Source: a virus. From it: DNA of 64,000 nucleotides. Made by a program: the position numbers and the translations under genes. Below, in pieces: positions 54,853 to 58,972 of this stretch (position 1 is the first letter of the stretch; every line of letters begins with the position of its first letter). Below the pieces are notes generated by a model. It did no database searches. It was not told the DNA's origin and saw only the letters and a list, made by a program, of their open reading frames with translations. Location: positions 9,853-73,852 of the IMG/VR virus record IMGVR_UViG_3300025646_005060, one strand, 5' to 3'.

Positions 54853-55736
54853 TATCGTAATCCTAGTGTTTGAGATCTGCCAGCAGCAATAAGTCCAGAT
54901 CTGCTAGTGATTTGAGAACCACGAAGACGAACAGATGGTTCAAGTTCTGTGAATGCGAGTGATATCGAATATACCATTGGATCTATATCGTTACCAACAC
55001 CTACCACACTGCTGCTTTCTAGTGGTATTCTCTTGGTCTTCACAACGGTTAATACAGAAAGTTGAGGTTGACCCGTCCATGCCTTATTGATCTGCGTGCT
55101 ATTCAGAGAAACGCTGTTTCCAAACGACCAAAGAGGTGGGTGATAAAATTTGGTGTTCGCTATATTTCCCCAAGAAGTTCCTGTTGGAAGCGAATATGCT
55201 TCAAATGCATTTGCTATATCTGCTGCCATTTTTGAATCACTTGATGTAAAACAGGGTAGATTTACCGTCACGTTAAAAGATCTTGATGGACCACCACCAG
55301 CAAATGTCAAATCATACATATCTGGTTCTGGCATAGAAGAACCATATCCCATCTCTTCACTAATAATTTCTCCTTTTTCTTGAATATAAGATCCTATATT
55401 TCCTATAAAATCATCAAAACTTTGTTTAATTCCTCCTAATCCAAACAAAGAAGGAGTAGATGTCACGGCATCTGTAAATTTTTTCTTAAACTCTGGAGCA
55501 GTGGTACTTATGAATGATATTTGTGCTGGGACGACAATATTCAAAAGCATGTTACTCAGGGTTGGTATGTTGAATTCACCAGCACCTCGTTTGGATGCCT
55601 CGAATCTATTCAGAGCATTTTGTGTGTAGGAAAACGCATAAAATCTCATCCATAGTGGAATTTTTGATTTTAGACTTTCTAGGGTTGGAAACAAAAATGA
55701 TTGAGTTGATTCCGTGAATTCAAAGGGGGATGCCAT
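54852..55736 (-). CDS. gp48: Baseplate tail tube cap (gp48-like)
   Basis: F.G...RSFN, P.....I.L.FTELE tube-fold pattern; synteny gp53-gp48-gp4. Confidence 0.65.
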   Translation of the reverse strand: MASPFEFTESTQSFLFPTLESLKSKIPLWMRFYAFSYTQNALNRFEASKRGAGEFNIPTLSNMLLNIVVPAQISFISTTAPEFKKKFTDAVTSTPSLFGLGGIKQSFDDFIGNIGSYIQEKGEIISEEMGYGSSMPEPDMYDLTFAGGGPSRSFNVTVNLPCFTSSDSKMAADIANAFEAYSLPTGTSWGNIANTKFYHPPLWSFGNSVSLNSTQINKAWTGQPQLSVLTVVKTKRIPLESSSVVGVGNDIDPMVYSISLAFTELEPSVRLRGSQITSRSGLIAAGRSQTLGLR

Positions 55737-55759: not shown

Positions 55760-56209
55760 ATGGCATATAAGACTCGTTTTTTACCAACTAACACTACAAA
55801 ATATATAGGTGATTGTAATAAGATAATATGTCGTTCTCTCTGGGAACGTAAATTTTGTAAGTTCCTGGACGAAAACGTAAATGTCATTCGTTGGTCATTT
55901 GAAACTCTAAAAATACCATATATTTCTCCAGTTGACAGACAACCACATTTCTACATACCAGATTTTATCGTAGAGAAGAAGAACAAAAAGGGAGAAATTG
56001 AAACACTATTGGTTGAGATCAAACCTTTCAAGCAGACACAAAAACCAAAGACTGGAAAAAGAAAAAGCAAAAAATCAATGATCAATGAAAATATTACATT
56101 TGAGATAAATAAAAGTAAGTGGGAAGCAGCAAAAGAGTTTTGCGAAAAACATTCATGGAAATTTGTCATTCTAACAGAGAAAGAGTTATTCAATGCCTCG
56201 GACAAATAA
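55760..56209 (+). CDS. gp4: Head completion nuclease (gp4, TnsA-like); start at MAYKTRF
   Basis: KYIGD...IICRSLWERKFC, IPYISPVD...H.YIPDF, VEIKP..QT, N.SKWEAA..FC....WKF.ILTEKEL. Confidence 0.95.
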   Translation: MAYKTRFLPTNTTKYIGDCNKIICRSLWERKFCKFLDENVNVIRWSFETLKIPYISPVDRQPHFYIPDFIVEKKNKKGEIETLLVEIKPFKQTQKPKTGKRKSKKSMINENITFEINKSKWEAAKEFCEKHSWKFVILTEKELFNASDK

Positions 56210-56780
56210 TTTAGGTATCGCAAAAACACTCAACGAGTTTAGACAAACTGTAGTCCAAAGAAAAGGACCACAAATTGCTGGCAAGTACGAGGTGGTAATG
56301 GTCACTGGATATGGCGAATCTATATCCTGCTATCCATTGAATGTTGTTCTTCCTGGTAGAACCTACAAATTCTATGAACATGATATCTGGGGACCAAATA
56401 GAAAAATACCAATCAAGAGAGTATATTCTGACTGTAGCATGACATTCATAATATACCAGGACTGGGGTGAAAGATCGTTTCTAGAAAAATGGATGAACCA
56501 TGTGATCAAAAACCAAGACAATACTTCTGTGGGAAGTACCAATCAATCGGATAACCAGTATAATGATTATTTAAAATATGAAAATGTCGGTACTATACAA
56601 GTCAGATTTCTAGCAAGCGATGATCATAATATCACAAATACAAGTGTGGTTCTCAAAGAAGCATATCCTTCCAGTTTAAGTCAAATTACTGTGGGTGCTG
56701 ACGGTTCTTCTTATCCCACATTTAATGTAACGTTTGAATACAACACATATGAATATGACAATTTTAGTTCTACAGTATAA
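56193..56780 (+). CDS. gp54: Baseplate tail tube initiator (gp54-like, tube fold)
   Basis: LPGR, G..RKIP..R.Y....MTF, FLEKWM, L.EAYP, FNVTF.Y. Confidence 0.65.
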   Translation: MPRTNNLGIAKTLNEFRQTVVQRKGPQIAGKYEVVMVTGYGESISCYPLNVVLPGRTYKFYEHDIWGPNRKIPIKRVYSDCSMTFIIYQDWGERSFLEKWMNHVIKNQDNTSVGSTNQSDNQYNDYLKYENVGTIQVRFLASDDHNITNTSVVLKEAYPSSLSQITVGADGSSYPTFNVTFEYNTYEYDNFSSTV

Positions 56781-56791
56781 ATGAGGTTAAT

Positions 56792-57511
56792 ATGAATAAA
56801 TTATTGAAACAATTGCAAAGTGCCTTGCCAAAGTATTCCGTCTCTCTTCCTTCCACGAAGAAAAAACTTAAATTCAGACCATTCACTGTGAAGGAAGAGA
56901 AAGTACTTTTGATCGCAAATTCTACAGCATCGTATGAGGAAATGTTGAACACACTGACAAACGTGATTGACTCTTGCTTTGACTTGGACAGACCGTCATC
57001 AGAATATCCATTCTTTGATATAGAATACTTGTTCTTAAAACTAAGATCAAAATCAGTAAATGAGACAGTAGAACTTACTTTCATATGTCCAGAAACTAAA
57101 GAAAAGATAACAAAAGAAATAAATCTTGATGATATAGAACCAGTATATTCAAAAGACCATAAATGTGAAATTCTTATTGACCCTACAATTAAAGTCAAAA
57201 TGAGATACCCATCATTGGATGACATCATAGATAACGAAAATTTAGATTACTACAACTTACTATTGACGTGTATTGAAAGTATAGAGACGAAAGATGAACT
57301 CATCATTGCCAAGGATTATTCAAAAGAAAATCTAACAGAAATAGTAGACAGTCTCACAAAAACACAATTCAATAAGTTGATTGAATTTTTCAAGACTATG
57401 CCAAGAATTGAAACCGAAGTAGAGTATCAAACATCGGATGAAGTTTCTAGAAAAATTAAATTAAAGGGAATTCGTGATTTTTTTCAGTCTGCCTCAGCCA
57501 CACAAATCTGA
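56792..57511 (+). CDS. gp26: Baseplate hub assembly protein (gp26)
   Basis: LPSTKKKLKFRPFTVKEEKVLL, FDIEYLFLKLRSKSV.E, MRYPS, FFKTMP, L.GI.DFF. Confidence 0.93.
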   Translation: MNKLLKQLQSALPKYSVSLPSTKKKLKFRPFTVKEEKVLLIANSTASYEEMLNTLTNVIDSCFDLDRPSSEYPFFDIEYLFLKLRSKSVNETVELTFICPETKEKITKEINLDDIEPVYSKDHKCEILIDPTIKVKMRYPSLDDIIDNENLDYYNLLLTCIESIETKDELIIAKDYSKENLTEIVDSLTKTQFNKLIEFFKTMPRIETEVEYQTSDEVSRKIKLKGIRDFFQSASATQI

Positions 57512-57693
57512 ACATAGTTCTTAAAATGAACTTTGATCTTGGGTATGTACACAATCAATCTTTGGAATATATTGAAAATATGATACCCTGGGAAAGAGAT
57601 TTGTATGTGGATCAACTGAGGCAGTATGTAGAAGAGCAGAATTTAAAATCACAGCAAGCTGCTGTAGAAAGTAGAAGTTATGGCAGAAGATAA
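57478..57693 (+). CDS. gp51: Baseplate hub assembly catalyst (gp51); first ATG at 57526, open frame begins at the slippery T7 (57478); not in ORF track
   Basis: Manually read: (FFSVCLSHTNLNIVLK)MNFDLGYVHNQSLEYIENMIPWERDLYVDQLRQYVEEQN...GRR*. The ENM.PWER..Y signature is present. Confidence 0.85.
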   Translation, partial: FFSVCLSHTNLNIVLKMNFDLGYVHNQSLEYIENMIPWERDLYVDQLRQYVEEQNLKSQQAAVESRSYGRR

Positions 57694-58972
57694 CAAGACA
57701 ATGGCAAATGAAGAACTAGGATCTCTTTTCAGTTCCAACATGATGTCCATTGCTCCTAACGTTATAACTTCATTATCCGCCGATACTTCTCCAATACCAT
57801 CCATAGAAAACGTCACGGATGCTACTCAGTCGGTCATCAATAATAATGTAAATTTAAGTTTAAACATTGCTAATGCGGGTCAGGGTGTAAGTAAGAACTA
57901 CAATAACATAGGAAAGGAAATTAATAATTTCTTAAATACCGAAAAGATTACAGATCCATTGGATTTAAAAAAAAATTATCAATCAAACTTAAAAATAGAA
58001 AATACTAATTTAATATCAAATAATTCATACAGTCCAAGTGAAAATATATCAATAAATTCTTCTTCAGTCTCTGCTCCAGTGACAAATATTACTAATTCTA
58101 ATATTACTAATTTTAATTCAAATTTATCTCAAACACCACCATCAATGAGTTCATTTGAAAATAATGTCATAAATGGAAATGAAAGTTCAACTACTATAAT
58201 AACCAATCCTAAAATTGAAAATATCTCAAATCAACAGATACCACAACTGTCTTCTGATAATGTTAACATTCAATCCAACAGCAGCGAAAACATTACAAAT
58301 AATAGCAATATAACAAATCTGACAAATCAATCAGATTCATCAATTATACAATCAACAAATAACAACTCTTATCAATCTATTGGAGATGGCAATTCTTTTG
58401 AAAATCAATCAGATTCATCAATTATACAATCAACAAATAACAACTCTTATCAATCTATTGGAGATGGCAATTCCTCAGTATCCAATTTCACAAATTCTTA
58501 CAATTATACAAATAATCAAAATCAAAATAATATGACAAATGTGGCATCAATGTCCACAAATTCTCAACAACAATTTGTGGGAAACTATTCAACGGTGGTG
58601 GTGGAAAACAGGGCATCATACAAACCCCTAGAAAGAATGGATGCAAATCCAAATCCACAATTTTCCAATGGACAACGAGATATAATTAATACTTCTCCGA
58701 GCGAGAAGGTGCAGTCAATTGAAACTCGTTTGATGGAATTGGAACGAATTGAAGGAGAAAATAGAGATTTAAATAATGAAAAAACAAATTCAATTCAAAA
58801 CTATAGCACAATGGATGCTGTATTTGATACTCCGATGTTTGAAAAAATTTCAGACAACACATCACCTCATAAAACATCCAATATCAATAAAAGTTCCATG
58901 AGTGCCAACACAATTGGTATACTCATTAATAAAATGAACAGTCCCCCAATATGGAGGACTGTTCTAGGGTAA
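57680..58972 (+). CDS. Asn/Ser-rich low-complexity protein, candidate tape measure (gp29 position)
   Basis: Directly follows gp26/gp51; low complexity; no catalytic motifs. Function inferred from synteny only. Confidence 0.4.
   Translation: MAEDNKTMANEELGSLFSSNMMSIAPNVITSLSADTSPIPSIENVTDATQSVINNNVNLSLNIANAGQGVSKNYNNIGKEINNFLNTEKITDPLDLKKNYQSNLKIENTNLISNNSYSPSENISINSSSVSAPVTNITNSNITNFNSNLSQTPPSMSSFENNVINGNESSTTIITNPKIENISNQQIPQLSSDNVNIQSNSSENITNNSNITNLTNQSDSSIIQSTNNNSYQSIGDGNSFENQSDSSIIQSTNNNSYQSIGDGNSSVSNFTNSYNYTNNQNQNNMTNVASMSTNSQQQFVGNYSTVVVENRASYKPLERMDANPNPQFSNGQRDIINTSPSEKVQSIETRLMELERIEGENRDLNNEKTNSIQNYSTMDAVFDTPMFEKISDNTSPHKTSNINKSSMSANTIGILINKMNSPPIWRTVLG
58324..58473. repeat. Perfect 72-bp direct repeat, period 78 bp (26 aa)
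   Basis: 58324-58395 equals 58402-58473; encodes NQSDSSIIQSTNNNSYQSIGDGNS twice. Confidence 0.92.

Follow-up and report, generated by a model that had tools for sequence, protein, structure and literature searches.

Phages with long tails generally make their tail assembly chaperone in a short and a long form. The gpG and gpGT proteins of phage lambda arise from one start, the long form being reached by a −1 shift close to the first gene's 3′ end (Levin 1993; Xu, Hendrix & Duda 2004; PMC5009743); they are made at a ratio of about 30:1, with the G part attaching to the tape measure and the T part to the tube protein (PMC5009743). The gp26 and gp51 proteins of phage T4 are hub assembly chaperones, and the particle does not contain gp51 (Leiman et al. 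2010, PMC3004832). The present analysis concerns the gp26 gene of an uncultured freshwater T4-like phage, which lies in a window of 64,000 nucleotides (nt) belonging to a 73.9-kb IMG/VR virus record (IMGVR_UViG_3300025646_005060, approximately 41% complete), together with the gp51 domain that is encoded in the −1 frame at the 3′ end of this gene. Based on the comparison of related sequences, we propose, with a probability of about 0.72, that gp26 encodes a tail or baseplate-hub assembly chaperone and undergoes programmed −1 ribosomal frameshifting, by which T4-type phages would fit the general rule for long-tailed phages.

The locus shares with lambda-type loci an X_XXY_YYZ slippery heptamer and a position after a gene with a tube fold, and, as is typical of G/GT pairs, a second open reading frame (ORF), open from 57478 to 57693, overlaps the first in the −1 frame and has no conserved start of its own. 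It differs from lambda in the much larger size of gp26 (239 amino acids, with an extra domain at residues ~100–230), in the heptamer itself, which is T_TTT_TTT and not G_GGA_AAG, and in its downstream gene, which is no recognisable tape measure; furthermore, the T4 homologues act in hub assembly. A poly-T slip site has a counterpart in phage P2, for which Christie et al. in 2002 reportedly described TTTTTTG as the slip site of gpE / gpE+E′. Likened by description, P2 likewise has a contractile tail, a slippery heptamer of poly-T type, and a −1 extension, whereas its proteins are small and its locus sits immediately between the tube gene and the tape-measure gene. The dnaX gene of E. coli, which combines A_AAA_AAG with an upstream Shine–Dalgarno (SD) element and a downstream hairpin, resembles the window in its in-register heptamer and in a purine-rich GG element located ~8–10 nt upstream. 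The features of the locus are listed below in coordinates of the window.

56792..57511, + strand: gp26 gene, encoding the short chaperone form (TAC-N) of 239 amino acids; PF12322 and phrog_150; zero-frame stop TGA at 57509–57511.
57465..57469, + strand: SD-like AGGGA, 8 nt 5′ of the heptamer; probably a consequence of conserved Lys/Glu-Gly codons.
57478..57484, + strand: putative slippery heptamer T_TTT_TTT, in register with the gp26 frame, as judged by codon reading and conservation.
57484..57693, + strand: −1 frame extension of 69 codons plus TAA, encoding the gp51 C-terminal domain (phrog_634), which would be reached only by a shift.
56792..57693, + strand: span of the predicted long form (TAC-NC, gp26-51 fusion) of 300 amino acids, with one −1 step at 57484; fusion-profile alignment to T4 gp51.
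57526..57693, + strand: 55-amino-acid ORF, the "short gp51" of gene-caller type, without an SD and with a start that is not conserved.

The product of the gp26 ORF matches PF12322 (T4_baseplate) with an expect value (E) of 2.4e-56, residues 13–231 being aligned with positions 2–218 of the 219 in the profile, and phrog_150 with an E of 2e-58. Towards its 3′ end, the zero-frame codons GAT (57476–57478), TTT (57479–57481), and TTT (57482–57484) arrange seven T's as X_XXY_YYZ. The −1 frame carries a TGA at 57475–57477, is open from 57478, and ends with the TAA at 57691–57693, and a shifted product is predicted to consist of 231 + 69 = 300 residues. Translation of the −1 frame from 57484 gives SVCLSHTNLNIVLK, after which the ATG at 57526 follows. 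Phrog_634 ("baseplate hub assembly catalyst") matches this −1 stretch with an E of 1.2e-15, and the match begins at residue 2 of the stretch, 13 codons ahead of that ATG, which is the only one. An earlier note on this DNA, made from the letters alone, had recognised the 14 codons preceding the ATG as gp51-like, which the phrog_634 match bears out, and its positions for the heptamer, the TGA at 57475–57477, the TAA at 57693, and the AGGGA at 57465–57469 are all correct; however, it let gp26 end at a CAG codon, which is wrong, since the zero frame continues for 8 codons to the TGA at 57509–57511.

The junction was inspected by eye in the Synechococcus phages S-H38 and ACG-2014f and in pelagiphage HTVC008M, and by script in 80 IMG/VR loci, the gp26 of which is 31–58% identical to that of the window, as well as in S-RIM8, S-P4, B23, the KVP40-like vibriophage PC-Liy1, and Rhizobium phage IC12. 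The junction counts cover the 88 loci that have this gene arrangement and contain the gp26 3′ end, which represent 72 distinct contexts. Alignment of the gp26–gp51 junctions, which the earlier note had suggested, reveals an in-register T_TTT_TTY in 88/88 loci, always in the −1 phase and with coding conservation 5′ of the gp51 ATG. These loci include Kyanoviridae, pelagiphage HTVC008M, a KVP40-like vibriophage, and a Rhizobium phage; in addition to the 88, Xanthomonas phage BUDD displays the same in-register arrangement. The distance from the start of the heptamer to the gp26 stop varies from 7 to 31 nt and is exactly 10 nt in 58/72 contexts, and in every one of the 88 loci the −1 frame continues without a stop from the heptamer into a gp51 domain 55–70 residues long. 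Position X is T in 72/72 contexts despite the varying amino acid of the codon to which it contributes the third base (Asp, Ser, Thr, Ala, or Asn), and the first Phe codon is TTT in 72/72, whereas position Z varies between T (58 of the 72) and C (14); the X_XXY_YYZ rule predicts exactly such an asymmetry. On the 3′ side of the heptamer, the invariant columns of the 72 contexts (+10, +16, and +22) fall on the second bases of −1 codons, and protein conservation changes to this frame exactly at the heptamer. T6Y runs are depleted approximately 3-fold in the whole window, with 28 observed against 81 ± 15 expected from dinucleotide-preserving shuffles, every one of which gave at least the observed number; the genome in the window seems to avoid long T runs generally. 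Since such runs are depleted and the heptamer is nevertheless found in all 88 related loci, T_TTT_TTT is more than a chance occurrence, and this conserved slip site is, on comparative grounds, very probably functional as a recoding site.

The distribution of start codons bears on a simpler explanation, in which no recoding occurs: gp26 would stop at the TGA ending at 57511, and a separate 55-residue gp51 would be translated from the ATG at 57526, either directly or by coupling or reinitiation. The window does contain this ATG, short gp51 ORFs are annotated in the GenBank records of relatives, and Vibrio phage K471 and Pseudomonas phage Cygsa01 have no heptamer and carry an ATG that overlaps the stop (TAATG), from which it follows that a free short gp51 may be viable in some lineages. 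However, a search of the sequence ahead of the ATG at 57526 for a purine-rich SD found none, as the earlier note had reported, and the matching codon in most close relatives specifies Ile or Leu, Met being present only in L010. A usable start is missing in most relatives: an ATG lies within two codons of the slip in only 14/72 contexts, 46/72 have no ATG, GTG, or TTG within the first 5 codons after it, and the commonest first ATG is at codon 19, deep within the conserved domain; S-H38 has no start codon over ~31 conserved codons. The 14 codons 5′ of the ATG at 57526, which match phrog_634, are also conserved as protein. Moreover, an independent gp51 would leave the invariant heptamer, the constraint on synonymous sites, and the gp26-like domain that precedes the same extension in T4 gp51 unexplained. 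The 55-residue ORF at 57526..57693 is thus probably no separate gene, and translation without recoding is an improbable account of the locus.

Homopolymers are error-prone, and a sequencing or assembly error, or a real indel, might have split one continuous gp26-51 gene. Two low-depth contigs of run X12 (an independent freshwater run of 2023) end at 57480 and 57484, within the T run, which represents an assembly break at the homopolymer with no sequence difference, and the record of Stenotrophomonas phage IME-SM1, with five T's, resembles a one-base undercall. Freshwater metagenomes that several studies produced between 2017 and 2025 contain the same DNA, and the T7 run is identical in contigs of run X9, from a different freshwater study, and of run X7, marked as one from which this DNA may have come. 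The same frame relation recurs across 72 distinct contexts drawn from many studies and platforms, and conservation of such breadth excludes a sequencing artefact. A single fused gene, in turn, would leave no short form, yet both forms are kept in T4; splitting of a continuous gene by error or decay therefore deserves hardly any credence. Apart from this, short contigs of other organisms accumulate at 57570–57610 in runs X7 and X12, where depth rises to ~95 against 12 and the flanks are unlike; the gp51 domain is at its most conserved here (the Met-Ile-Pro-Trp-Glu-Arg-Asp region), and this part is shared at the DNA level with related phages of the same samples.

A natural control is provided by phages that carry a T4-type gene 26. 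Since a search of IMG/VR for T4-type gp26 gave only 7 near-T4 loci, the controls were taken from GenBank records instead; the set comprises 7 Straboviridae lineages, namely T4, Moonvirus KM16, Dhakavirus Bp7, an Acinetobacter phage, the RB49-like PHB13, Aeromonas phage avDM14, and L099 from IMG/VR. A divergent gp51-type neighbour of ~250 amino acids is annotated in 5/7, KM16 and L099 carrying no annotation, and the −1 ORF that follows gene 26 in these controls is gp25. The motif Gly-Leu-Lys-Glu-Phe-Phe is kept in most of them, where it is spelled GAG TTC TTT, GAA TTC TTT, or GAG TTT TTT, and the in-register heptamer is found in 0/7. As Phe-Phe is kept without the heptamer, the T run is not a by-product of Phe-Phe and is retained only in genes that need a shift.

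The relationship to T4 extends to the architecture of the proteins. T4 gp51 (249 amino acids) matches PF12322 over residues 1–201 (E 3.9e-52) and phrog_634 over residues 147–246, while T4 gp26 (208 amino acids) consists of the PF12322 domain only. A hidden Markov model built from 76 distinct computed fusion products aligns T4 gp51 residues 15–242 as a single domain, ungapped across the junction, and T4 gp26 residues 4–207, an end that lies just past its own Phe-Phe. These alignments indicate that the shifted product has the architecture of T4 gp51, and the unshifted product that of T4 gp26. Thus, the proteins of T4 and of the window phage belong to one family (PF12322 with the gp51 C-extension) and come in the same two forms, short and long, but T4 encodes them in two divergent paralogous genes and the window phage in one gene with a −1 extension. 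Given that genes 26 and 51 of T4 are divergent neighbours, no fusion is possible there. The copy number agrees with this distinction: T4 has two PF12322 genes, and a single one was found in the complete genomes of S-H38, ACG-2014f, HTVC008M, and PC-Liy1 as well as in the window record, which is ~41% complete. T4 may be regarded as the derived case, in which recoding was replaced by gene duplication. The gp51 of cyanophages and marine vibriophages has been noted to be only ~20% as long as that of T4 (Sullivan et al. 2010, PMC3037559); this shortness would be accounted for if gp26 itself makes up the missing 200 residues, joined to gp51 through the frameshift.

An AlphaFold2 model of the window gp26, calculated from a 40-sequence alignment with a predicted local distance difference test score (pLDDT) of 91.4 and a predicted template modelling score (pTM) of 0.85, was searched against 48,161 PDB representatives with the VIA-align wide search, which is independent of Foldseek. 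The best four structural matches all fall on gp26 residues ~1–98: the uncharacterised Bacillus protein 3fgx (Z 7.5), the HK97 tail assembly chaperone 2ob9 (Z 7.2, with a root-mean-square deviation of 4.9 over 87 residues), YqbN of B. subtilis, 3klu (Z 6.8), and 5ir0 (Z 5.2); the next match has a Z of 4.9 or below. Foldseek against the PDB returned no match at E ≤ 0.001 and placed 2ob9 at rank 15, as the sole match of high probability (0.77). A search of the gp26 sequence against solved structures gave only chance-level matches to BPTF (E > 0.1). As the Z values lie below the tool's caution line of 8, the fold provides moderate support, and the modelled N-domain of gp26 appears, with moderate confidence, to have a tail-assembly-chaperone-like fold; the resemblance to the HK97 chaperone is a further likeness to lambda-type loci. 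Together, the heptamer, its phase, the coding constraint, the T4 architecture, the copy number, the controls, and the fold lend strong comparative support to the claim of the earlier note that gp26 and a −1 gp26-gp51 fusion form a G/GT-like pair.

We infer from these data that ribosomes slip and thereby make the fusion, and that the two forms act as chaperones. Most ribosomes would pass T_TTT_TTT (57478–57484) in frame and terminate at the TGA at 57509–57511, which would yield the short form of 239 amino acids. A minority would slip back by one base with two tRNA-Phe on UUU UUU, both of which could re-pair perfectly with the UUU UUU located one base 5′, and these ribosomes would read the −1 frame from 57484 to the TAA ending at 57693, producing a long form of 300 amino acids that would bear the gp51 C-terminal domain in a T4 gp51-like architecture. 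By analogy with lambda gpG/gpGT, the shared part may coat the tape-measure or hub protein, and the extension may recruit a tube or hub partner; by the same analogy, neither form would stay in the virion. The efficiency of the shift is probably low, of the order of a few per cent, as no stimulatory structure accompanies the heptamer; such a value matches the need of a G/GT-type ratio.

Several points weigh against a programmed ribosomal frameshift. The sequence RARGG, which encodes the conserved Lys/Glu-Gly, occurs 9–14 nt 5′ of the heptamer in 70/72 contexts, but it is equally present in the non-shifting T4-type gp26 genes, and this SD-like element is therefore not specific to frameshifting. 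Folding of the 103 nt from 57478 to 57580 for downstream RNA structure gave a z of +0.26, and the 18 distinct sequences of the clade of the window gave a mean z of −0.6 and no consensus pair with RNAalifold. K471 and Cygsa01, as described above, carry a stop-overlapping ATG and no heptamer. No experimental report of the fusion protein was found in the literature for the window phage or its relatives. Lastly, the T run also allows transcriptional slippage, which would give an identical protein.

Two candidate stimulators of the shift find no support. The earlier note had likened the AGGGA at 57465–57469 to the upstream element of dnaX-type sites; it is indeed located 8 nt upstream of the heptamer, but it is probably no specific dnaX-like stimulator, because the same conserved Lys/Glu-Gly is found in the non-frameshifting controls. 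Unlike dnaX, therefore, the window has an SD-like element that is probably explained by conserved residues and is present in non-shifting homologues, and it has no downstream hairpin. A downstream stimulatory stem-loop or pseudoknot was rejected for the clade of the window, based on the z values and the lack of an RNAalifold consensus.

Transcriptional slippage would involve the host RNA polymerase, modified by phage late factors, adding one U on the T7 run, so that standard translation of the altered message would give the same 300-residue fusion. A pure homopolymer of 6–8 T in 72/72 contexts is what this mechanism would use, and it is in keeping with the result that no RNA structure and no specific SD stimulator for a ribosomal shift were found. 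However, 14/72 contexts contain six T's only (TTTTTTC), a run that is, to our knowledge, shorter than those known for productive bacterial slippage without a helper hairpin. The length of the run is also not maximised: its 3′ position is free to be T or C, whereas the 5′ position, on which re-pairing of the P-site tRNA depends, is invariant. Likewise, the register is always X_XXY_YYZ, although this point is confounded by the conserved Phe-Phe. As to the yield, a few per cent of the long form is enough for lambda-type systems (30:1, PMC5009743), which slippage might supply, and the title of Vladimirov et al. (2022), taken by itself, points to a non-translational mechanism. The sole RNA run found (X20) covers only 57621–57720, and contigs cannot reveal rare U insertions. 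On balance, slippage by the polymerase is unlikely, though not far-fetched, as the source of the long form; if true, slippage without a helper hairpin on 6–8 T's would constitute the first tail-chaperone pair set by the fidelity of RNA polymerase.

The pairing of gp26 with gp51 as the T4-like equivalent of G/GT is an idea already published in 2022, as far as the papers that cite it convey. Vladimirov, Gautam & Davidson (Virology 2022;566:9-15, PMID 34826709) are cited in PMC10885494 and PMC12846349 as having identified the genes that encode the tail assembly chaperones of T4-like phages. Citing them, the PRFect paper states that some T4-like phages have one short gene and one longer fused gene in place of frameshifting (PMC10885494), and the phage Adele paper mentions −1 slip signals of poly-T type, placed at the end of the short-form gene, for the TAC-N genes that T4-like phages carry (PMC12846349). 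A direct literature search combining gp26, gp51, and frameshift returned nothing relevant. The earlier note had considered the arrangement not to be standard annotation; this stands for the database records, a join being annotated in 0/11 of the frameshift-type GenBank records examined, where gp51 is short, start-less, or missed, but not for the idea, which the citing papers attribute to the 2022 study. In the collection searched, 767 phage records gave a match to the gp26 gene, and many records therefore probably need correction of their annotation. Thus, the window adds one further member, together with controls, and no new principle; its value lies in the corrected annotation, the natural control, and the question of mechanism.

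Junctions that depart from the common arrangement were observed in several divergent phages. Salmonella phage bering (L107; Ackermannviridae, MT074472.1) has an unannotated gp51-like ORF of 61 codons in the −1 frame of its gp26-like gene, which spans the gp26-like stop (locus 2314–2316), from ~22 nt ahead of it to 161 nt beyond it, and has no Met ahead of a conserved Met-Pro-Trp-His. Its junction reads GAG ATT TTC ATT TAA and contains no X_XXY_YYZ heptamer, which suggests that a shift may take place on a shorter T_TTC motif. An NTT TTC motif is common to bering, Vibrio phage K471 (L089, CTT TTC AAG TAA), and Pseudomonas phage Cygsa01 (L106, ATT TTC ACC TAA), the latter two having the stop-overlapping ATG. 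The record of Stenotrophomonas phage IME-SM1 (L091, KR560069.1) reads GAT TTT TCG at locus ~2190–2200, with five T's; its "gp26" ORF is thereby extended by ~40 unrelated residues, with the gp51 domain placed in the +1 frame. A run of six T's would bring it into line with all others, giving Phe-Phe-Gly-stop and a gp51 domain in the −1 frame, and the five-T run is, judging from the letters of the record, probably a one-base homopolymer undercall.

The gp26 gene is flanked by the following two genes.

56193..56780, + strand: upstream gene with a tail-tube fold (gp54/gp19-like), 195 amino acids; phrog_45 "tail tube" with E 5.5e-22, and a weak match to PF06841 (T4 gp19) with E 0.014.
57680..58972, + strand: downstream Asn/Ser-rich ORF of 430 amino acids, a tape measure by position only.

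The gene order given in the earlier note, i.e., a tube-fold gene, gp26/gp51, and a tape-measure candidate, accordingly holds on the upstream side, where phrog_45 identifies the tube fold, whereas the candidate at 57680–58972 had no match in Pfam or PHROG. A tblastn search with this ORF against all loci matched mostly its C-terminal end in close relatives, and only the last ~20 residues in the weakest. The equivalent downstream genes of HTVC008M and ACG-2014f match tape-measure PHROGs. A direct repeat of ~25 residues also lies within the ORF at 57680–58972, where DSSIIQSTNNNSYQSIGDGNS is present twice. Further upstream, the gp4-type head completion gene at 55730–56209 matches phrog_218 (E 2.6e-52) and also the Pfam TnsA-like endonuclease N-terminal domain (E 6.3e-20).

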